Source: Verrucomicrobiota bacterium (GTDB lineage Bacteria > Verrucomicrobiota > Verrucomicrobiia > Opitutales > Cerasicoccaceae). Taken from it: DNA of 64,000 bases. The stretch lies in NCBI GenBank assembly GCA_039818205.1, contig JBCBUK010000012.1, positions 71,239 to 135,238 on the forward strand, written 5' to 3'. The translations under genes and the position numbers were made by a program. Under the pieces are notes generated by a model. It did no database searches. It worked only from the letters and a program-made list of their open reading frames with translations, and was not told the DNA's origin. Shown piece after piece: positions 16,794-27,607 of the stretch. Position 1 is the first letter of the stretch. Each line of letters opens with the position of its first letter.

Positions 16794-18017
16794 ATGGCGA
16801 TGCCACGCAAATACCACGAACCGATTGATGCCCCAGCTGGAAGCTTTGCTGAGGCCTTTGCTCGTCTGCCCCTGAACCAGCTAACCGAGCAGGCCTACTC
16901 GACCGATGCCGCTCGTGTGGATACCATTCTCAAGCGTGGGCAGGCACGGACACTGGAGGATTTCGCCGCGTTGATCTCACCGGCGGGCACGGAGCGTCTC
17001 GAAGCTCTTGCCGCACACTCCCAGCAGATTACCCAACGAAACTTTGGCAAAGCAATCCGCCTGTTTGCTCCGATGTATTTGTCCAATGAATGCGTGAATG
17101 TTTGCAAATATTGCGGCTTCTCGCGGCACAACGACATCCCCCGCATAACCATTCCCGTTGGTAAGGTCGAGGAGCAGTCTAGGATGCTTAAACGACAGGG
17201 ATTTCGCTCGCTGCTGCTTGTGGCTGGTGAGCATCCGAAGTGGGTTTCTAACGGCTACGTCGAAGATTGCATCCGCAAAACACTTCCCCACATGCCGGCC
17301 ATCAGCATCGAACTCGGCCCGATGGAAGCGGAAGAGTATCGGCCATTGGTTAGTGCCGGAGCCGAAGCGCTGATTGTCTATCAGGAAACGTACCATCAAC
17401 CGACCTACGAGGAGCTCCATACGGCGGGACCGAAAAAGTATTTTGCATGGCGGATGGACACCCCTGAACGCGGCTATGCCGCTGGATTCCGCCGACTGGG
17501 CATCGGGGCGCTCTTGGGACTGCATGATTGGCGTTACGAAGCCTTAGCGGTGGCCGCTCACGCCCAGTTTCTCCTGCGCAAGTGCTGGAAGGCACAAGTC
17601 TCAGTCAGCCTGCCACGCATGCGCCCGGCGGCGGGTGGATGGCAGCCCAATCCGGAATATTCGATGAGCGACCGTGAGCTTGTGCAAACCATTTGCGCAC
17701 TACGGATGCTTTTGCCCCACGTTGGTGTCACGCTTTCAACTCGGGAGCCTCCGGCGTTGCGCAATGGCTTAGTTCCGCTCGGTGTTACCTTGATGAGCGC
17801 CGGAAGTTCCACGGAGCCCGGCGGCTACGATCATTTTGACGAATCCCAATGGACGCCGACTCGGGAGCAACCGGGCGAGCAGTTCAACATCGCCGACGAG
17901 CGTTCCCCTGGCGCCATTGCAGCGATGATCCGTAGTCAGGGATACGAGGCCGTCTGGAAGGACTTCGACCAAGCCTTGGTATCCGACAGTTCAATGGCCA
18001 AGCCCGTCGAAGCCTAA
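16794..18017 (+). CDS. thiH: 2-iminoacetate synthase (radical SAM tyrosine lyase)
   Basis: FAPMYLSNECVNVCKYCGF (CxxxCxxC), YQETY, SLPRMRP, STRE, SAGSSTEPGGY, VWKDFD. Confidence 0.93.
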   Translation: MAMPRKYHEPIDAPAGSFAEAFARLPLNQLTEQAYSTDAARVDTILKRGQARTLEDFAALISPAGTERLEALAAHSQQITQRNFGKAIRLFAPMYLSNECVNVCKYCGFSRHNDIPRITIPVGKVEEQSRMLKRQGFRSLLLVAGEHPKWVSNGYVEDCIRKTLPHMPAISIELGPMEAEEYRPLVSAGAEALIVYQETYHQPTYEELHTAGPKKYFAWRMDTPERGYAAGFRRLGIGALLGLHDWRYEALAVAAHAQFLLRKCWKAQVSVSLPRMRPAAGGWQPNPEYSMSDRELVQTICALRMLLPHVGVTLSTREPPALRNGLVPLGVTLMSAGSSTEPGGYDHFDESQWTPTREQPGEQFNIADERSPGAIAAMIRSQGYEAVWKDFDQALVSDSSMAKPVEA

Positions 18018-18811
18018 GACAAAATCGCGCGATTGAGTTTGCCGGACACGAATCCTTCTTCGTCGATCTCAACTCGCTTAAACCCGACATCACTGAAGTC
18101 GGATTGGATCTGCTCCAAGTGGCTCTTCAGTTCCGTAAGGCGGTCCTGAGGCGCCTCGATCCGGGCAAGCTCGCCAAAGTGGCGAACTCGGTTGATGGGG
18201 AAGCCCATTGAGGTCAGTACGGCCTCCGCCCGCTCGATTTGCTTGAGTTTTTCGAAGGTAATTCGTTCGCCGTAGGGAACTCGCGAGGCTAGGCAAGGGC
18301 TCGCTGGTTTATCCCAGCAGGCTAGCTTGAAGTGCACCGCGATCTCGCGAACATCTGCCTTGTTCAATCCGCATTCTAGTAGCGGCGAGCGCACTTTAAA
18401 CTCGGACGCCGCCTTCATCCCAGGCCGGTAGTCACCGGAATCATCCGCATTGGCGCCATTCAAGATCCACCAATCCGGGTAGCGCTGCTGGATTCCCGCA
18501 ATATCGTCGTAGAGTGTATGCTTACAAAAGTAGCAGCGATTCTCGGGATTGTTGAAATAGTTGGGGTTTTCCAGCTCCCCGGTAATGATTACTTCCAGCG
18601 GAATGTCATGCTCTCGAGCAAAATCTCGGGCAAGCTCCAGGTCCGAAAGTTTGAGCGCGGGCGAAGCTGACGTTACCGCAAGAGCCCGATCCCGGGACAA
18701 GAAATGCCGAGCCAAAAAGGCGACCAAGGAGCTATCAACGCCGCCAGAGAATGCCACCAACGCGCCTGGGCACTCGGAAAACCAATTTTTAAGCGCGTCT
18801 AGGTGTTGCAT
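18014..18811 (-). CDS. larE: NPN cofactor ATP-dependent sulfur transferase LarE ([4Fe-4S]-type Cys pattern)
   Basis: PP-loop AFSGGVDSS, NRCYFCK, DYRPG, WDKPASPCLASRVPYG, SGKLN. Confidence 0.93.
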   Translation of the reverse strand: MQHLDALKNWFSECPGALVAFSGGVDSSLVAFLARHFLSRDRALAVTSASPALKLSDLELARDFAREHDIPLEVIITGELENPNYFNNPENRCYFCKHTLYDDIAGIQQRYPDWWILNGANADDSGDYRPGMKAASEFKVRSPLLECGLNKADVREIAVHFKLACWDKPASPCLASRVPYGERITFEKLKQIERAEAVLTSMGFPINRVRHFGELARIEAPQDRLTELKSHLEQIQSDFSDVGFKRVEIDEEGFVSGKLNRAILS

Positions 18812-18886
18812 GAACGATCATCATAGATTTGTTTTGCGAACTGTCAACCGGGACACCCATTCGATCCGACCCGAACTTTTTTGACT

Positions 18887-20230
18887 ATGCGAACCCTCTA
18901 CTATCAATGCCCCGCTGGTATCAGCGGTGACATGAATCTCGGCGCCATGGTCGCTCTGGGTGTGGACCCAGCTCGACTGGAAAGTGAACTCCAGAAAATA
19001 TCGCTCGATGGCTGGTCTATCGCGTTTAGCAATGACGTACGCGGTGGGATCACCGGTATCCGCTGCGATGTCGTCCTCGACGAATCGGGGGAGCATTCCC
19101 ACGAGCATGCTCATACCCATACCCATGAGCACAAACATGGAGATCATAGCCACAGTCACGAGCACGAACATGGAGATCATGGCCACTCACATTCCCACGA
19201 TCACGGAGACGGGCATTCTCATAGTCACGGACTTGGGCATCATCATCGGACGTTTCGCGACATCTGTGAAATGATTGAAGCCTCCGAATTGGACAACGCC
19301 ATAAAAGCCGACGCAATTGCTGTTTTTGAATCGCTTGCCAAGGCCGAAGGGGCCGTCCACGGAATGCCGCCCGAAGCGGTACATTTCCACGAGGTTGGGG
19401 CCGTTGACTCGATTATCGATATCGTCGGCGCCGCAATTTGCTGGGAGCTACTAGGGATCGACCAGGTGAGCTGCGGCACCCTCGAGCTTGGTGGCGGAAC
19501 GGTGCAGTGTGCACACGGGCGCATGCCGGTGCCCGCTCCTGCGACCGCTAAGCTCGTGCAAGACTTACCCGTATCCATAGGCGCAACTAACAAGGAGGCA
19601 ACCACGCCGACTGGTGCGGCCCTGCTTGTGGGCAAGAGTGCGCAGTTTGGCCTGAGAATCAGTGGCAAGCAGGTCGCCAATGGCGTCGGCATTGGGCAAC
19701 GCCAAGACCCCAATCTTTCCAACGTCGTTTATGCCTCGATCATTGAGTCCGACGAGGCAACCGACACCCAAGACACCGTAACCGAGTTAGCCGCGAACCT
19801 CGACGACATGACCAGTGAGGCAGTCGCGTTCCTGTGCGATCGCTTGCTGGACGCGGGCGCATTGGACGTTTGGCAAAGCGCCGCGACCTTCAAAAAAGGC
19901 CGCGCCGGGTTTATCGTGCACGCACTCGCTGACTCGCAATCAATTGACACCATTGAGGAAGTCTTTTTCGCCCACAGCACGACTTTGGGCATTCGCCAGC
20001 AAGAGTGGCACCGCGCCAAACTCCAGCGAGAGACCATCGAGGTCGAAACCGAATGGGGCCCGGTGCGCATCAAGCAAGCAATGCGCGATGGCGAGGTCGT
20101 CCGGGTTAAGCCGGAGTTCGAAGACTGCAAGCGGATCGCAGAGGAGCAGGGAATTTCACTGATGCACTTTCAGCAATTGCTGGCATCTCAGTTATTTGAA
20201 TATGTCGATGAGGAGGAAGATGATGGCTGA
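18887..20230 (+). CDS. larC: NPN cofactor nickel insertase LarC (single fused ORF, His-rich insert)
   Basis: GISGDMNLGA, AEGAVHG, VHFHEVGAVDSIIDIVG, AHGRMPVPAPAT, TPTGAA, NLDDM, KKGR, TTLGIR, KPEFEDC. Confidence 0.95.
   Translation: MRTLYYQCPAGISGDMNLGAMVALGVDPARLESELQKISLDGWSIAFSNDVRGGITGIRCDVVLDESGEHSHEHAHTHTHEHKHGDHSHSHEHEHGDHGHSHSHDHGDGHSHSHGLGHHHRTFRDICEMIEASELDNAIKADAIAVFESLAKAEGAVHGMPPEAVHFHEVGAVDSIIDIVGAAICWELLGIDQVSCGTLELGGGTVQCAHGRMPVPAPATAKLVQDLPVSIGATNKEATTPTGAALLVGKSAQFGLRISGKQVANGVGIGQRQDPNLSNVVYASIIESDEATDTQDTVTELAANLDDMTSEAVAFLCDRLLDAGALDVWQSAATFKKGRAGFIVHALADSQSIDTIEEVFFAHSTTLGIRQQEWHRAKLQRETIEVETEWGPVRIKQAMRDGEVVRVKPEFEDCKRIAEEQGISLMHFQQLLASQLFEYVDEEEDDG
19094..19246 (+). 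repeat. Histidine-rich low-complexity tract in LarC (24 His in 51 codons, with HGD-containing repeats)
   Basis: HSHEHAHTHTHEHKHGDHSHSHEHEHGDHGHSHSHDHGDGHSHSHGLGHHH; repeated CATGGAGATCAT at DNA level. Confidence 0.95.
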
Positions 20231-20957
20231 TGTACGATCCATTCTTGAACGCTTGCAAAGCGGCGAGCTGAGCGTCGAACAAGCTACCACCGAACTCCAA
20301 GGCTTCGAAGACCTGGGACATAGCCGCGTTGACCATCAGCGCGAGCAACGCAACGGTGCGCCCGAAGTAATCTTTGGTCAGGGCAAAACACCCGAACAGA
20401 TCGTCGATATCGTCGGAAGCTTATCCGCCCGTGGTTCCAATGTGCTGGTTACTCGAGTTCAGGACGATGCGGTTGAGCCTCTGCTCAAGCAGTTTCCAGG
20501 CGCCAAGCACCATGCGATTGCGCGTCTCGTTTCACTTGAGACCTCCCCACCTGACCGCGCAGCGCACACCATTGCGATGGTTTGCGCCGGGACCTCTGAC
20601 TTGCCGGTCGCCGAAGAAGCGCGATTAACCGCTGAGTTCTACGGCAATCCAGTACTGCAAGTTTATGACGCCGGTGTGGCTGGGCTACACCGGCTGCTCG
20701 CAAGCATTGACCAGATTCGACAGTGCCGAGTCGTGGTCGTGGTTGCCGGGATGGAAGGTGCTCTTCCCAGCGTTGTGGGCGGCCTAGTGGATGCCCCGGT
20801 TATCGCGGTGCCCACGAGCGTCGGATATGGCGCGAATTTTGGTGGGCTTTCAGCCCTCCTCGGTATGCTCAACAGCTGTGCAAGTGGCCTGAGTGTCGTG
20901 AACATCGACAACGGTTTCGGCGCAGGCTATTTAGCCAATCGCATTAACCGCCTGTAG
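20220..20957 (+). CDS. larB: NPN cofactor carboxylase/hydrolase LarB
   Basis: PEVIFGQGKT, AGTSDLPVAEEA, GVAGLHRL, AGMEGALPSV, PTSVGYG, MLNSC, VVNIDNGFGA; overlaps the larC stop. Confidence 0.95.
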   Translation: MMADVRSILERLQSGELSVEQATTELQGFEDLGHSRVDHQREQRNGAPEVIFGQGKTPEQIVDIVGSLSARGSNVLVTRVQDDAVEPLLKQFPGAKHHAIARLVSLETSPPDRAAHTIAMVCAGTSDLPVAEEARLTAEFYGNPVLQVYDAGVAGLHRLLASIDQIRQCRVVVVVAGMEGALPSVVGGLVDAPVIAVPTSVGYGANFGGLSALLGMLNSCASGLSVVNIDNGFGAGYLANRINRL

Positions 20958-21393
20958 CTTGGAGACGCTTCTTAAGAAAGCGGTCTTTGTTTTCAATTTT
21001 CCAAAACTCCCAGCCAAGGTGGTGGTAGAAGCCGACCGCGCGTTTGGTTTCGTCGGTGTAGGTAGTCAGCCAAATTTCCTGATGCCCTTCTGAGGCGAGC
21101 CATTGCTCAACCATGCCGATGAGCTTGCCTCCAATACCGCGACCCTCGTATTCCTCCAGGACGGCTATCACCCACATCTCTCCGGTAGAGCGGTTACCAA
21201 TGGCAAAGCCGACAACCTGACCATCGGTCTCGCATAGCCATCCTTTGTGTGTATCGGTCAACATTTCGGAAACGGAGGCTCGCGTGATGCCCATACTCTC
21301 AAGGTCTTCACGACCAGTTGGAGTACTCCATGTGCGAACCCGCACATCGAAAATTTCTGGCATATCAGCCGAAATGATCTTCCTGAACTCCAT
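20944..21393 (-). CDS. GNAT family N-acetyltransferase
   Basis: AVLEEYEGRGIGGKL acetyl-CoA motif, AVGFYHHLGW. Confidence 0.88.
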   Translation of the reverse strand: MEFRKIISADMPEIFDVRVRTWSTPTGREDLESMGITRASVSEMLTDTHKGWLCETDGQVVGFAIGNRSTGEMWVIAVLEEYEGRGIGGKLIGMVEQWLASEGHQEIWLTTYTDETKRAVGFYHHLGWEFWKIENKDRFLKKRLQATGG

Positions 21394-21479
21394 AGAAACT
21401 TCTGCTATTAAATAGGCATCAATAGTCACTTTGTATCAACATCAATACAAAACGAAGGATGTCAGTGTGATCGAAAAAC

Positions 21480-22484
21480 CTACGCTTTTCGGTGATGGCA
21501 GCAGCTTTCGTAGATCTCGCCGCCGTGCTTCATCGCATAGTCATCGAAGTGCTTGGCGTCGAAGTTCGCCGCAAACTCTTCGCGCTCCAATGGCGTCATC
21601 GGCTTGACCGGTGATGCCGCGACAGCGGCTTCCACGTAGGGCACTTTGTCCATTCCGACGACCTGCGTGCAGACCTCGGGATAGCTCAACGAGTAGCTGA
21701 TGATCTCGCTGATGTTCGTCTTGCCATGGAGCTGAGTACGGCGGCTACCGCCAAAACCCTTCATGCCAAGAACAGCGATATCGTTTTCTTTACAAAGTGG
21801 CATCACGCGCTTCTCAAACTCACGAGATTTCAGCGCGCCGACTATCGAAACGGGCATCAAGGTCGCGTCCCAGTCGTAGCCGCCCTTAATCAAATCGACA
21901 TGAATTTGCGGGTCCGTGTGGCCGGTGAAACCCGTGTAGCGAATCTTGCCCTGCTCCTTGGCGAGGTCGAGCGCAGCCAATGCACCATCGGACTCGTAAG
22001 CACGTTCGGCATCGTCGCCGGAGACATGGTGAAGCATCCACAAATCAATATGGTCAGTCTTCATGCGGCGGAGGGAGTCTTCCAACATCTTCATCGCACC
22101 CGTTTTATCGTCGGAGTACTTACCACTATGGTAGATGCAGAATTTCGTCATGAGGAAGTATTTGTCGCGCGCAAATCGATCGAGTGCGACACCCATATAC
22201 TCCTCGGCCTCGCCTCCGTGGTAATCCCAGGCGTTGTCGTAAAAGTTGATACCGAGGTCCATCGCCTTGTCGACAATATCGTTGGCCTCCGTTTGGGAAC
22301 CCGACAGGTAAAGCGTGTGCCCTCCCAAGCCTACCACGGTCAGTAGGTCATCGTGCTTGCCGAACTTGCGTTTGGGTATCGTGGTTTGCGCGGCGGCATC
22401 GGCCAATGCCTGCCCGGTTGATGCGCCCAAAACAGCGGCGGTTCCTAACGAAGACTTGAGGAAATGACGTCGGGACAAGCTCAT
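21480..22484 (-). CDS. Tat-exported aldo-keto reductase family protein
   Basis: Tat signal SRRHFLK...AxA; FYDNAWDY (Asp/Tyr), LMTK (Lys), SLRRMKTDHIDLWMLH (His), GKIRYTGFTGH; C-terminal CCHH. Confidence 0.9.
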   Translation of the reverse strand: MSLSRRHFLKSSLGTAAVLGASTGQALADAAAQTTIPKRKFGKHDDLLTVVGLGGHTLYLSGSQTEANDIVDKAMDLGINFYDNAWDYHGGEAEEYMGVALDRFARDKYFLMTKFCIYHSGKYSDDKTGAMKMLEDSLRRMKTDHIDLWMLHHVSGDDAERAYESDGALAALDLAKEQGKIRYTGFTGHTDPQIHVDLIKGGYDWDATLMPVSIVGALKSREFEKRVMPLCKENDIAVLGMKGFGGSRRTQLHGKTNISEIISYSLSYPEVCTQVVGMDKVPYVEAAVAASPVKPMTPLEREEFAANFDAKHFDDYAMKHGGEIYESCCHHRKA

Positions 22485-22932: not shown

Positions 22933-23058
22933 ATTAAAAGATGCCACAGAGGCTTCAAAAATTCAAATGAACCATTAATCTACTATCCGAAGATAGGTAT
23001 CACAAGTTTGATCATTGCCCAATTTTTGCATTCACTGGAAATACAGTCCGCAACTCCC

Positions 23059-25368
23059 ATGCACCCCTTTCTCCCGAAAATCTGGACTTGGCTCGCCTCG
23101 ATGAGCGCGGCGGCGCTTGCGCTGGCGCCCGCCGAAACCACTGCTGCTCAAGACGATGCATTTCCGCTGGATGAGCATGGCCATCTAAACTGGTCGGATT
23201 TCCGAGTTTTGATGGCGGAGAACTGTTTCGATTGTCACGGCGGATTTTTGAAGGAAGGTGGCGTTGACCTTTTTGCCATGCGGGAGGAATCCTCAATCGT
23301 CGAAAACCCTGAGCTTTGGGAATCGGTGTCCAAAGCGCTGCGGATTCACTACATGCCACCTGCCGATCACCGCAACTTTCCCACGCACCGCCGAGAAGCG
23401 ATGGTGCGCACCGTCGATGCAGAGTTACTCGCTGCCGCCGAACAAGAACAAGCCGACCACGCGTCGTTGCGTCGCCTCAATCGCAATGAATTTGCCAACA
23501 CCCTGCGCGATCTTCTTTTGGTCGACTATGCGGTCGAAGATGAGCTGCCGCCCGACGACTCAGGCTACGGCTTTGACAACAACGCCGACGTCCTTCCGGT
23601 TTCGCCATTGCTCTTGGAGAAGTATTTGAACGTGGCCGCGGACGTTGGTGAGCGCGCGGTGCCGCTGCCCATTGAGCCGCGCCAGGTTGATGTCTATGGC
23701 ATCGAGATGGCTGGTTACAATGGCACCAACCGCAACAACGCTTATGTGGTGTACTCCGATGAGCAGCGAAGCTCGGCCCGCTACGCGTTCAAACATGTTG
23801 GCCAGGGTGACTACGAGGCGCGCATTTTCCTCGCCGGTCAGCAAGCAGGCGATGAACCCTGCCGTGCCCGGGTTGTGATCAACGGCAAATCGATGGGGGA
23901 TTTCGTAGTCGAGGCCGAGGATATTGAAGACCCCTTGGTCGCCACCGTCCGCTTCACGGTCCGCAATGATCGACCCGCCTATTTCCGTATCGACCTGCTG
24001 AACGACTACTACAACAAAGACGCGCCGGAAGGAGAACCCAATGACCGAAACCTCATCGTAGGAGGCATGGAGATTGAGGGCCCGTTTCAAACCGAAGAAA
24101 ACCTATACACGCCATTCCTGAAACGACATTTCGGGCAGATCCCCAATGAGGCACCCGAGGATGTTCTGCGGGATGGAATCTGGCGATTTGCCAGCCGCGC
24201 CTATCGACGCCCAGCCGCGGCCGAGGAGATCAGCTCGCTCTGGGCCGTTTACACCGAAGAGAATAAACGCACGAACAATCCACGGCGCGCCCTACGCGCC
24301 GTTGTCGATTCAGCACTGTCGTCCCCAAATTTCATTTTTCGCTGGGAGCCCAAGCACTCGCGTGATGAGTTCGCACTGGCGAGTTGGCTCTCTTACTTCA
24401 TCTGGGGATCCATGCCCGACGACCAACTCTTTGACTTGGCCAAGGATGGCAACTTGCGGGCAAACCTGGAGAGTGAGATCAAGCGCATGTTATCCGACCC
24501 ACGGGCGAAGGCATTGACCAATCATTTCGCGGCTCAATGGCTACAGTTTCGCGATCTAGATCAGTCTCATCCGGACCGGAAGAAATATCCACAGTTCAGC
24601 TACGGGCTCCGGCACTCGATGAAACAGGAGACCCAGCGTTTCTTTGAAGACTTGATCAAAAAAGACCGCTCCATCATGCGGGTACTCGATGCCGATTACA
24701 CGTTTGCCAATAAACAGCTCGCCGAATTCTACGGCTTGTCCGAAGCTCCCGAAAAGGGCTTTCAGAAAGTATCGCTTGAAGGCACTCATCGGCGTGGTGT
24801 TTGGAGCCAGGGAAGCGTGCTAATCGTCACCTCGCACGTCGATCGCAGCAGTCCAGTTCTGCGCGGAAAATATATCCTCGAGAATCTCATTGGCATGGAG
24901 CCGCCGCCCCCACCGGCGAACATTCCCTCGCTGAGCACCGCAGCGGAGCAACCCACGCCAAAAGACTTCCGAGACAGCTTGGCAATCCACCGCGACAATC
25001 CCGACTGTGCATCCTGCCACAAGATACTGGACCCGCTCGGCCTCGTCTTGGAAAGCTACGACGGTATTGGTGCGTGGCGCAGCTCGGACGACCACCGAAC
25101 CCGCGAAGTCTTATTCGATGGCACCGAGATTGAACTCCCGAGCCAGTTAGCGGAATACCTGGTGAATGAGCGACAAGATGAGTTCCTGGAAACCTTCGCA
25201 GAAAAGCTCGCGATCTACGCCAGCGGACGTGGACTCGACTGGCGGGACCAACCAGCAATCAACCAGATAGTCACCGACACCGAAGAAAATGACTTTCGCT
25301 TTTCAGCAATCATGACGGCTGTCATCGAGCAATTTGGCCCGGGTATGGAGCCGCCGCCAGCCCGCTGA
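23059..25368 (+). CDS. DUF1592-family (PSD/PSCyt) c-type cytochrome protein with an inserted carbohydrate-binding-like domain
   Basis: Signal peptide; CFDCH and MPP; LRRLNRNEFANT, GYGFDN; NDYY...DRNL insert; LSSPNF, LASWLSYFIWGSMPD, FAAQWL, SSPVLRG, HRDNPDCASCH. Confidence 0.9.
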   Translation: MHPFLPKIWTWLASMSAAALALAPAETTAAQDDAFPLDEHGHLNWSDFRVLMAENCFDCHGGFLKEGGVDLFAMREESSIVENPELWESVSKALRIHYMPPADHRNFPTHRREAMVRTVDAELLAAAEQEQADHASLRRLNRNEFANTLRDLLLVDYAVEDELPPDDSGYGFDNNADVLPVSPLLLEKYLNVAADVGERAVPLPIEPRQVDVYGIEMAGYNGTNRNNAYVVYSDEQRSSARYAFKHVGQGDYEARIFLAGQQAGDEPCRARVVINGKSMGDFVVEAEDIEDPLVATVRFTVRNDRPAYFRIDLLNDYYNKDAPEGEPNDRNLIVGGMEIEGPFQTEENLYTPFLKRHFGQIPNEAPEDVLRDGIWRFASRAYRRPAAAEEISSLWAVYTEENKRTNNPRRALRAVVDSALSSPNFIFRWEPKHSRDEFALASWLSYFIWGSMPDDQLFDLAKDGNLRANLESEIKRMLSDPRAKALTNHFAAQWLQFRDLDQSHPDRKKYPQFSYGLRHSMKQETQRFFEDLIKKDRSIMRVLDADYTFANKQLAEFYGLSEAPEKGFQKVSLEGTHRRGVWSQGSVLIVTSHVDRSSPVLRGKYILENLIGMEPPPPPANIPSLSTAAEQPTPKDFRDSLAIHRDNPDCASCHKILDPLGLVLESYDGIGAWRSSDDHRTREVLFDGTEIELPSQLAEYLVNERQDEFLETFAEKLAIYASGRGLDWRDQPAINQIVTDTEENDFRFSAIMTAVIEQFGPGMEPPPAR

Positions 25369-25422
25369 TTTATTCCTTTTATTCCCAGCCCAAAGCGTTA
25401 AACTACCAATCAGGACAAAGCC

Positions 25423-26793
25423 ATGAGCACGGACCAACCATCGACTCCCCTTCCCCGCCGAGCATTCCTCCGTAACCTTGGCGTATCGATTGCCTTGCCC
25501 ATGCTATCCTCGATGCCCAGTCGGCTGTTGGCAGAGGCTACTCCCTTGGTAAAACCGGTTGGAGTAACCCCGGATGGCACCCCACTTCGAATGGCTTTTG
25601 TGTATCATCCCAACGGCGTGATACCGAGCACGTGGTATCCCGAAACGACCGGCAAGCTCGATGTCCTACCGCCGACTCTAGAACCGCTAAAAGAGCTCAC
25701 TAATTCCGTCCGCGTGATCTCGGGACTAAATCATGAGAAAGCGGAAGCCAATGGCGATGGCGCCGGCGACCACGCCCGCGCGAACGCAACCTTCCTCACT
25801 GGTATGCAGGCAAAGAAAACCGGCGGCCAAGACATTCGCATTGGAACTTCCATTGATCAGATCGTCGCCCGCGAGCTAGACGGCATCACGCCCCTGTCCT
25901 CCATGGAGCTTTCGTGCAGTGGCCAACGCACCACGGGATCGTGCGACAGCGGATACAGTTGCGCCTACCAGTATAACCTTTCCTGGCGCAACCCAAACAC
26001 ACCCAACCCGCCCGAAAGCAATCCGCGCGCGGCGTTTGAACGTCTATTTGGAGACAGCGATCCCAACGAGAAGCGCCGCATTCTAGAACGGTGGGCGAGA
26101 CGCCAAAGCGTGCTCGATGGAGTGCGTGACGACGCCCGGACTCTTTACCGACAGGTATCGGCGGAAGACCGCGATAAACTCGCCGCCTACCTCGATGCTG
26201 TTCGCGCCGTTGAACAACGCGTCGAAGCCGTCAGCGCCACGCCAGACCCACCCGAGCATGTTGAAGCACCGCGCGGAATTCCCGGTGCCTACTCGGAGTA
26301 CCTCGACGTCATGTATGAGATGATGGCCATCGCCTTCGAGACGGATATGACCCGCGTTACCACCTTTATGTTGGCACACGATGGCAGCAACCGCACCTTC
26401 CCGGAGATTGATGTCCGCAGCGGCCACCACCAGTTGTCCCACCACAAGAACGAGGCCGATAAAATCGAGCAACTCAAGAAGATTGACCGATTCTACGTCG
26501 ATGCCTACGCCCGCTTCCTAAAGCGCATGCGCGATACCAAAGACGTCTCAGGAAAGAGCCTTTTAGACTCCTCAATCATCGTCTATGGCGGTGGTATTCG
26601 AGATGGAAACAAACACGACCACGGTGACCTGCCCGTCCTCTTGTCCGGCGGCGGCGGCGGAACGATCCAAGGCGGCGACCACTTTGACGCCCAAGGCGTG
26701 CCAATGTGCAACCTCTACGTCGAACTCGCCCAACGTATGGGCGTTAACATCGACTCCTTCGGTGACAGCTCCGGTCGTCTGGGCCAGGCGTAG
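25423..26793 (+). CDS. DUF1552 (HxxSHH) family protein, Tat-like signal
   Basis: RRAFLR, PNGV, SIDQ, CDSGYSCAY, NPRAAFERLFG, HHQLSHH, GNKHDH; follows the DUF1592 gene, the usual arrangement. Confidence 0.92.
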   Translation: MSTDQPSTPLPRRAFLRNLGVSIALPMLSSMPSRLLAEATPLVKPVGVTPDGTPLRMAFVYHPNGVIPSTWYPETTGKLDVLPPTLEPLKELTNSVRVISGLNHEKAEANGDGAGDHARANATFLTGMQAKKTGGQDIRIGTSIDQIVARELDGITPLSSMELSCSGQRTTGSCDSGYSCAYQYNLSWRNPNTPNPPESNPRAAFERLFGDSDPNEKRRILERWARRQSVLDGVRDDARTLYRQVSAEDRDKLAAYLDAVRAVEQRVEAVSATPDPPEHVEAPRGIPGAYSEYLDVMYEMMAIAFETDMTRVTTFMLAHDGSNRTFPEIDVRSGHHQLSHHKNEADKIEQLKKIDRFYVDAYARFLKRMRDTKDVSGKSLLDSSIIVYGGGIRDGNKHDHGDLPVLLSGGGGGTIQGGDHFDAQGVPMCNLYVELAQRMGVNIDSFGDSSGRLGQA

Positions 26794-26812: not shown

Positions 26813-27607
26813 CTAGCTCAAGAACGCAGTGAGCGGACTCGTGGCCTGGGCAGTGGTTGACTGTGCGCCGAGGCCAACTTCGTAGGCAGCGCGGCCCGAA
26901 TCGACTGCAACCGCAAAGGCTTGGGCCATCTTAACGGGGTCACTGGCGACCGCGATCGCGGTGTTCACCAGAACCGCATCCGCCCCCATTTCCAAGGCGG
27001 CTGCTGCATGCGAAGGCGCACCAATACCGGCATCAACCACAACGGGTACGCGTGCTTGTTCAATAATGATCTCAATCTGCGCACGGGTTTCGAGCCCACG
27101 GTTGCTACCAATGGGCGCGCCCAACGGCATGACCGTCGCGCAGCCAACATCTTGTAAGCGGGCAGCTAGAACCGGATCGGCATTGATGTAGGGCATGACC
27201 GTCCAGCCTTCTTTGACCAAAATTTCTGCTGCTTTAAGCGTCTCAATCGGATCTGGTAACAAATAGTTGGGATCGGGGTGGATTTCGAGCTTAACCCATT
27301 GAGGCAAACCAGCCGCGGCTGACAGGCGTGCAAGCCGAACCGCTTCTTCCGCATTCATCGCACCCGCAGTATTTGGTAATAGCAGGTAGCGTTCTGGCTC
27401 AAGAAAGTCGAGGATGTCCGCATAGGGGTCTGCTTCGCTAGAAAGGTTCGCCCGCTTAAGCGCAACAGTCACCAAACCGGTTCCACTGGCGCGGATCGCA
27501 TCGCGCATGGACTCGTTCGACGAAAATTTTCCGGTTCCCACGAGCAGGCGGCTCGGAAACTCTTTTCCGGCAATGATGAGCGGTTCTTTGGATAATGGGT
27601 CCGTCAT
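26813..27607 (-). CDS. thiG: Thiazole synthase
   Basis: [51 protein letters not shown]. Confidence 0.97.

Follow-up and report, generated by a model that had tools for sequence, protein, structure and literature searches.

Nickel-pincer cofactor genes beside a predicted exported aldo-keto reductase

Why does a bacterium keep the genes for nickel-pincer mononucleotide (NPN) when their classic client, LarA, is missing, and is the aldo-keto reductase (AKR) encoded beside them the enzyme that uses it? LarB, LarE and LarC form the established cytoplasmic pathway to NPN, and in the lar system of Lactiplantibacillus plantarum they accompany LarA. In the window, the 64-kb stretch of DNA analyzed here, larE, larC and larB are all intact. 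The earlier note mentioned proposals of AKR-fold NPN enzymes, and such an enzyme does exist: NphT, a hydride transferase from Alicyclobacillus cellulosilyticus that depends on NPMN (PDB ID: 9YEB; Semersky et al., Nat Chem 2026, PMC13524815), so that the concept of an NPN-using AKR is already known. The layout described earlier, with the AKR gene one GNAT gene away from larB, is recovered with all five open reading frames in place:

18014..18811, minus strand: larE, sulfur insertase (TIGR00268, 287.7 bits, cut-off 150)
18887..20230, plus strand: larC, nickel insertase, fused LarC1-LarC2 (PF01969, E 8e-129; TIGR00299 and NF052512 above cut-off)
20223..20957, plus strand: larB, carboxylase/hydrolase (NF033503, 302 bits, cut-off 175)
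20944..21429, minus strand: GNAT acetyltransferase (PF00583)
21480..22484, minus strand: Tat-signal AKR of the NphT type, 334 aa, predicted NPN client (PF00248)

As in the L. plantarum lar system, the three biosynthetic genes score above the NCBIfam cut-offs, which upholds the complete larE/larC/larB set reported earlier; for larC the scores are 190.8 with TIGR00299 (cut-off 90) and 135.1 with LarC2 (cut-off 50). The larE product has its PP-loop, SGGVDS, at residues 22-27 and a CXXC-C motif (C93, C96 and C173; motif as defined in PMC9283937), and is therefore probably of the [4Fe-4S] type of Thermotoga, unlike that of L. plantarum. larC starts with ATG and encodes a His-rich insert with 24 His over a span of 66 residues, its stop codon is overlapped by the larB start, and GAGGAGG precedes that start. 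Since larE points away from larC-larB, and the AKR gene runs toward larB, the genes form a cluster and not one operon. Promoter and terminator counts are near chance (3 vs 2.8 and 4 vs 5.4, respectively), though one 11/12 site lies upstream of larE. The GNAT gene, with a GC content of 52% against 55-58% for its neighbors, has no homolog in any of the other loci compared; it was rejected as part of a conserved module and is hence taken as a local insertion. Again unlike the L. plantarum system, the genome gave no match to NicO or HupE/UreJ, the two nickel transporter families searched.

The genome has no LarA

The lack of a larA in 64 kb, remarked on in the earlier note, extends to the whole genome. 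A LarA profile search (Lar_N, PF09861) returned 0 matches in an assembly that is 99.97% complete and of which all but 908 bases were searched, and the LarA-like proteins of two congeners, used as tblastn queries, found no genome match at E<=1. A larA elsewhere in the genome was thus rejected as an explanation of the cluster, which sets this genome apart from L. plantarum. The ornithine cyclodeaminase family, another known NPN client family, is also absent from the genome.

The AKR has counterparts of the cofactor-binding residues of NphT

A match to PF00248 (E 3.8e-30) places the protein in the AKR superfamily, and its alignment-based model is a TIM barrel with a pLDDT of 89.5 (37 for a single-sequence fold). 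The closest fold match is 1YNP_B (Z 30.9, rmsd 2.2 Å over 256 residues) in a library that runs to April 2026 and lacks 9YEB. With single-sequence phmmer the best PDB match is 9YEB itself (E 2.6e-18), a weak similarity of ~70 bits over 200 residues, and in a family-profile search the canonical AKR11C1 ranks first, slightly above 9YEB (E 7.8e-32 vs 5.9e-29). In NphT the nickel ligand is H144, the tether is K200 and the catalytic tetrad is D47/Y52/K75/H106; NPMN is covalently bound (+450 Da) and hydride transfer is NAD(P)-independent (PMC13524815). The counterparts of the first two residues are:

21918..21920, minus strand: His189, aligned to the nickel ligand His144 of NphT in the alignment to 9YEB
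21759..21761, minus strand: Lys242, in register with the thioamide tether Lys200 of NphT by alignment plus a one-residue extension

The GFTGH segment of the AKR (residues 185-189) pairs with GITGH of 9YEB, so that both proteins carry Thr-Gly-His on the nickel side. The alignment stops at M241, equivalent to I199 of NphT, and since K242, the last residue of LGMK (239-242), comes next, it corresponds to K200. The tetrad, D83, Y88, K114 and H152, is likewise in register with that of NphT. H189, K242, Y88, K114 and H152 are invariant in 120/120 homologs, and position 83 is Asp in 58 and Glu in 62 of them. The alignment does not extend to W218, Y219 and G248, which contact the cofactor in the capped NphT cavity that leaves no room for AMP (PMC13524815). 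Canonical AKRs that rely on NAD(P)H (AKR11C1, 1YNP; L-galactose dehydrogenase, 7SMI) share the fold and the tetrad with our protein; in the alignments they lack a His after strand 5, where the AKR has His189. Near their C-terminal helix these enzymes have an Asn, which we take to be an adenine-binding residue, and this position is Ala in 115/120 of the homologs.

SRRHFLK (residues 4-10), the tetrad and GFTGH are thus all present, as the earlier note had read them. The C-terminal CCHH that it also listed is found at residues 328-331; it is not conserved, with CC in the last 25 residues of only 57/120 homologs and a tail region that is poorly modeled, and we rejected it as a conserved functional motif and regard it as probably incidental. 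The genome encodes nine AKRs, and the three that have both the His and the Lys are the three with a Tat motif, a motif found in 59 of 3426 ORFs by a crude genome baseline; five non-Tat AKRs have neither residue. By the same residues the two further His/Lys Tat-AKRs, encoded elsewhere in the genome, are candidate NPN clients too.

The AKR co-occurs with the lar genes

Among 401 genomes of the phylum, 37 encode the AKR and all 37 have larC, which is found in 240 of the 401 overall; in a sister family (f34; 73 genomes) the AKR is present in 34 and larC in 36, with all 34 overlapping, counts to be read with the proviso that neighboring genes are co-inherited and related genomes are not independent. 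In this family 25/33 close AKR orthologs lie within 3 kb of larC, and Lar_N is found in 0/26 of the genomes tested. The AKR and the lar genes are present together or absent together across its six genera, with 2/73 genomes discordant, and they co-occur in two genomes (G110 and G360) where they are unlinked. Within the genus of the source organism, the five congeners have larC in 5/5, Lar_N in 4/5 and a close AKR in 1/5. Lar genes were nearby in 2/80 metagenome loci (1 among the 9 closest), and a scan of genome contigs returned only distant AKR relatives (2/26 at ~40% identity), none with lar genes. The association with larBCE that the earlier reading implied is therefore borne out by co-occurrence in the phylum and in the sister family and by synteny within 3 kb, with an exception among distant relatives: genome G059 (97% complete) encodes seven Tat-motif AKRs (by pattern match, the Lys motif occurs in all of them and the His motif in six), together with LarA and no larB, larC or larE above cut-off. 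Such a combination suggests that G059 may miss a contig or import the cofactor.

Assignment of the AKR to the NPN type is strongly supported by a His/Lys motif and a tetrad that match those of NphT in position, by the invariance of all of these residues but D83, by the co-occurrence and synteny with lar genes and by the lack of LarA and ornithine cyclodeaminase in the genome; on these sequence grounds it is very probably NPN-dependent. A protein that instead holds NAD(P) tightly, in the manner of glucose-fructose oxidoreductase, next to larBCE that serve another, unrecognized client and have merely hitch-hiked, would fit the His/Lys Tat-AKRs of G059 with undetected larBCE, the two genomes (G480 and G495) that carry larBCE and no close AKR, and the first rank of a canonical AKR in the profile search. 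We consider it quite improbable, as NphT is distinguished from canonical AKRs by the His/Lys pair, the joint presence and absence in six genera holds also where the genes are unlinked, and G059, having LarA without larBCE, may itself be missing a contig or acquire the cofactor by uptake.

A conserved Tat signal suggests export

The AKR resembles NphT in its PF00248 barrel, tetrad, nickel-side motif and Lys tether position, and in adjoining larB, larC and larE without larA; it differs in being only distantly related in sequence, in its variable Cys/His tail and in its N-terminus:

22401..22484, minus strand: twin-arginine signal peptide, residues 1-28, with SRRHFLK (4-10), a hydrophobic stretch and ALA as predicted cleavage site

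The match to PF10518 (TAT_signal; E 2e-4, 21.4 bits) is slightly below the Pfam cut-off of 22.7, and an AxA site is found in only 77/114 homolog signals; among more distant His/Lys relatives about half (43/85) have a Tat motif, an indication that the family works both ways. These points would suit an NPN-dependent AKR whose Tat-like peptide is a relic or serves as an anchor that stays uncleaved, in effect a cytoplasmic NphT and not a free periplasmic enzyme. We hold this to be unlikely, given that the motif is kept in 114/120 close homologs (86 in the strict S/T-RRxFL/IK form), with a hydrophobic stretch in 113/114, that the six homologs without it are apparently start-truncated gene calls, and that the genome has tatC (E 6e-46). 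The Tat signal noticed earlier is thus a conserved one, and its presence on an NphT-type AKR points to a hydride shuttle that would work in the periplasm without NAD(P), in support of the earlier note's reading of an NPN-loaded AKR active outside the cytoplasm. We put the probability that the AKR is both NPN-dependent and exported at roughly 0.65.

In the model for such an exported NPN enzyme, LarB, LarE and LarC would make the cofactor in the cytoplasm, the barrel would hold it by a covalent link to Lys242, His189 acting as nickel ligand, by analogy to NphT, and Tat, as the signal implies, would export the folded holo-AKR. A periplasmic ping-pong reaction may then follow, in which Tyr88, aided by Lys114, His152 and Asp83, takes the proton and hydride passes from a first substrate to the bound cofactor and from there to a carbonyl compound as second substrate, without free NAD(P)H taking part. 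The enzyme would thereby be a nickel counterpart of the periplasmic glucose-fructose oxidoreductase of Zymomonas mobilis, which, according to PMC8121099, is a Tat-exported PF01408 protein with non-dissociating NADP that oxidizes one sugar and reduces another. Going by the same text, the likeness lies in export with a bound hydride carrier and is that of a functional analog only, the two proteins being of different families and the latter using NADP. A variant in which the exported AKR is a one-way dehydrogenase or reductase and an electron carrier in the periplasm regenerates its cofactor, perhaps via the Cys/His tail, with no second organic substrate, would draw on the CC pair in 57/120 tails and on the solvent-exposed nickel of NphT, whose physiological substrate is unknown according to PMC13524815. 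The tail is variable and of low confidence in the model, and no electron-carrier gene is among the neighbor clusters common to several of 17 loci, and we think this variant improbable.

For the two-substrate exported AKR, the substrate would most likely be a sugar or another polar aldehyde/alcohol pair; a sugar-type substrate specifically is a tentative assignment. Neighbor clusters from the 17 loci showed no conserved sugar gene flanking the module: GH52, MFS and XylR-like genes are nearby in 3-4/17 and an alpha-fucosidase in 2, a patchiness that allows no substrate to be named from the neighbors. An EamA transporter gene does travel with the AKR and, if the model is true, would carry its substrate, its product or a cofactor precursor.

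Relation to published NPN enzymes

The NPN-using AKR class itself is published, and what is new here relative to NphT is the conserved Tat signal. The words Tat, signal peptide, periplasm, secret- and export do not occur in the main text of PMC13524815, our literature search found no publication on a periplasmic or Tat-exported NphT-type enzyme, and six taxon names had no match in 7/12 supplementary files of that paper, which lists 427 or 798 sequences. A 2026 review (PMC13673990) lists the cofactors for which insertion ahead of Tat export has been demonstrated, and NPN is not among them. If a holo-NPN enzyme is indeed exported, this would be the first case as far as literature searches reach, and NPN would become a further cofactor that passes through the membrane via Tat. 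Were G059-like genomes truly without larBCE, exported NPN enzymes might even load cofactor from other cells.

According to PMC11796402, ~15% of analyzed genomes have larBCE without larA. That this clade has a Tat-exported, cofactor-loaded NPN enzyme in a four-part module of larBCE, periplasmic AKR and EamA transporter, and that this enzyme is the sole reason many larA-less relatives make NPN, is a proposal for which we see even odds. Some of these larA-less relatives with larBCE have genomes of only 1.3-2 Mb. Even where its genomes are very small, the sister family seems to retain larBCE almost exclusively in company with a single predicted exported AKR, and thereby offers a clean genetic handle on the in vivo role of NphT-type enzymes.

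The lar module and its conservation

The genes that bear on the proposed nickel-pincer cofactor (NPN) client, a 334-residue aldo-keto reductase (AKR), are arranged in the window as follows:

18014-18811, minus strand, larE
18887-20230, plus strand, larC
20223-20957, plus strand, larB
20944-21429, minus strand, GNAT gene
21480-22484, minus strand, AKR

All three lar genes exceed their NCBIfam cut-offs by wide margins, so that the set described as complete in the earlier note is indeed complete, and the AKR, with SRRHFLK at its N-terminus, lies one GNAT gene away from larB, as it had stated. The larC and larB reading frames share 8 nt, larE is divergent from them and the AKR is oriented towards larB. 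LarE contains SGGVDS together with C93, C96 and C173, a CXXC-C arrangement that is linked in PMC9283937 to a [4Fe-4S] cluster. The larE stop is overlapped by 4 nt by thiH (16794-18017; TIGR02351 over cut-off), an adjacency not seen in the other loci, and 9 kb further downstream is an ORF (26813-27607) that by eye resembles thiG. A PVC-type gene pair occupies 23008-26793, the first encoding a DUF1592/1588/1587/1585/1595 protein with cytochrome c-like and CBM60-like domains and the second a DUF1552 (HXXSHH) protein whose N-terminus is twin-arginine-like.

The absence of larA holds throughout the genome (99.97% complete, with 908 bases left out), where the LarA family Lar_N (PF09861) has zero matches, tblastn with the LarA-like proteins of two congeners returns nothing at E≤1, and the ornithine cyclodeaminase family has no match.

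The Tat-signal AKR next to larBCE is a real, conserved module, and the association anticipated by the earlier note is found in both co-occurrence and synteny. Among 401 phylum genomes, each at least 90% complete, 37 are positive for the AKR profile at E≤1e-40 and every one of them contains LarC, versus 240 of 401 overall. In one family (f34, 73 genomes) the AKR is found in 34 genomes and LarC in 36, including all 34 with the AKR, and neither is found in 37; six genera are mixed for presence, the only discordant genomes are G480 and G495, and Lar_N is absent from all 26 f34 genomes tested. Twenty-five of the 33 close orthologues in this family are within 3 kb of larC, one adjoins larB where its contig ends (L135), five are on other contigs than larC and two (in G110 and G360) are unlinked to it. 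In all of these counts kin are not independent and adjacent genes travel together. In 12 of 15 close-clade loci of other genomes, larB and the AKR converge at a distance of no more than 1.5 kb and no GNAT gene is present, so the GNAT gene is a local insertion; in a congener locus (L041) the junction is occupied by a different gene. In G495, which lacks larA and the AKR, apparent Rhs-type and mobile-element fragments (L204:950-6367; judged by eye from ORF starts) lie downstream of larB, the AKR's usual place.

Against the larBCE link stands G059 (97% complete), a genome with a LarA and seven Tat-motif AKRs that match the Lys motif, six of them also the His motif (L194-L200), in which none of larB, larC and larE is found over cut-off. 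It is the sole genome without LarC among the six of 61 relatives with an AKR match at E≤1e-20; candidate readings are that a contig is missing, that the cofactor is taken up or that a different cofactor is used. Moreover, lar genes occur in 2 of 80 metagenome loci (1/9 among the closest), and physical linkage is therefore mostly a trait of the window's AKR clade. In the window's genus, larC is present in all five congeners, Lar_N in four and a close AKR in one, so the lar cluster in relatives also serves LarA.

A longer Tat-motif AKR of about 405 residues with GLTTH is found in G027 (L051:10725-11942), where it adjoins larE, and in G480 (L189), and is possibly a second exported clade tied to lar genes. 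Another family (f43, 31 genomes) has LarC in 17 genomes, with Lar_N and the AKR profile (E≤1e-40) in none, and may thus harbour a further NPN client yet to be discovered.

Comparison with NphT

NPN-dependent AKRs beside larBCE are already published, with 427 instances and 798 motif-bearing sequences (PMC13524815). In NphT, the enzyme described there, Lys200 tethers the cofactor (NPMN), His144 binds nickel and aldoses are disproportionated without NAD(P). NphT (9YEB) is the top PDB match of the AKR by phmmer (E 2.6e-18), and the alignment, once the chain numbering is shifted by three to match that of the paper, places NphT D47/Y52/K75/H106/T142/H144/I199 on D83/Y88/K114/H152/T187/H189/M241. The tetrad seen in the earlier note (here D83/Y88/K114/H152) and the T142/H144 positions are thus common to both proteins; K242 is in register with K200 only by a one-residue extension, because the printed alignment ends at I199. 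In the best 120 of 271 homologues found, Y88, K114, H152, H189 and K242 are invariant, and position 83 is divided between D (58 homologues) and E (62). With a family profile AKR11C1 scores a little above 9YEB, so overall similarity alone is undecisive and the motif decides; the AKR family is broad, with 566 representatives at 50% identity scoring E≤1e-30.

A model built from the homologue alignment (pLDDT 89.5) has the expected AKR fold (1YNP_B, Z 30.9, rmsd 2.2 Å, 256 residues aligned, in a fold library without 9YEB), with H189 and K242 after barrel strands, but its last 30 residues are of low confidence. This tail includes the CCHH at 328-331, whose residues are present as described, but the CC is found in just 57 of the best 120 of 271 homologues.

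The genome's nine AKRs provide an internal control. Three have the His, Lys and Tat motifs (the window's AKR, C14:112929-113942 and C1:83295-84467), one has the His motif but neither the Lys nor the Tat motif, and five lack all three. The C14 and C1 proteins, with GVSGH/AMK and VSFH/AMK, respectively, at the NPN positions, retain, close to the C-terminal helix, an Asn that is absent from the window's AKR and are further candidate NPN or NPAD clients.

Proposed export and mechanism

The twin-arginine signal is conserved: SRRHFLK precedes a hydrophobic stretch, ALA occupies residues 26-28, tatC is found in the genome, and 114 of the best 120 of 271 homologues have the motif, 113 of these with a hydrophobic stretch, 86 in strict form and 77 with an AxA site. 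In fetched loci, many picked by patterns including Lys and some clipped at contig ends, the motif is found in 24 of the 26 close AKR ORFs and in 43 of the 85 distant ones.

The AKR is best described as a probable periplasmic relative of NphT, and this probable location is what is new. Semersky et al. (PMC13524815) is the one relevant NphT publication found, and its main text does not mention export. A search that reached few subscription papers, with the large supplements of PMC13524815 outside its scope, found no publication connecting nickel-pincer enzymes with a twin-arginine/Tat signal or the periplasm, and the cofactors listed in PMC13673990 as inserted before Tat export do not include NPN. 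NPMN would be bound covalently to the AKR in the cytoplasm, the holo-AKR would be exported by Tat, and the exported enzyme would pass hydride ping-pong between two substrates. Glucose-fructose oxidoreductase, a periplasmic enzyme with non-dissociating NADP (PMC8121099), is its nearest working analogue.

Sugar genes are beside the module in few loci only. A 283-residue EamA/DMT transporter adjoins larE in 11 of 17 loci and is found in 28 of 73 f34 genomes, every one AKR-positive; among the 61 relatives searched it is confined to the window's genome and G048. Across f34 and the relatives examined, it is thus limited to genomes with the close AKR clade and, as a lead only, may move substrate, product, nickel or a precursor. 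In the window's genome its gene (C2:76409-77266; L211:10410-11267; orthologue L042:3111-3962) is unlinked to the module.
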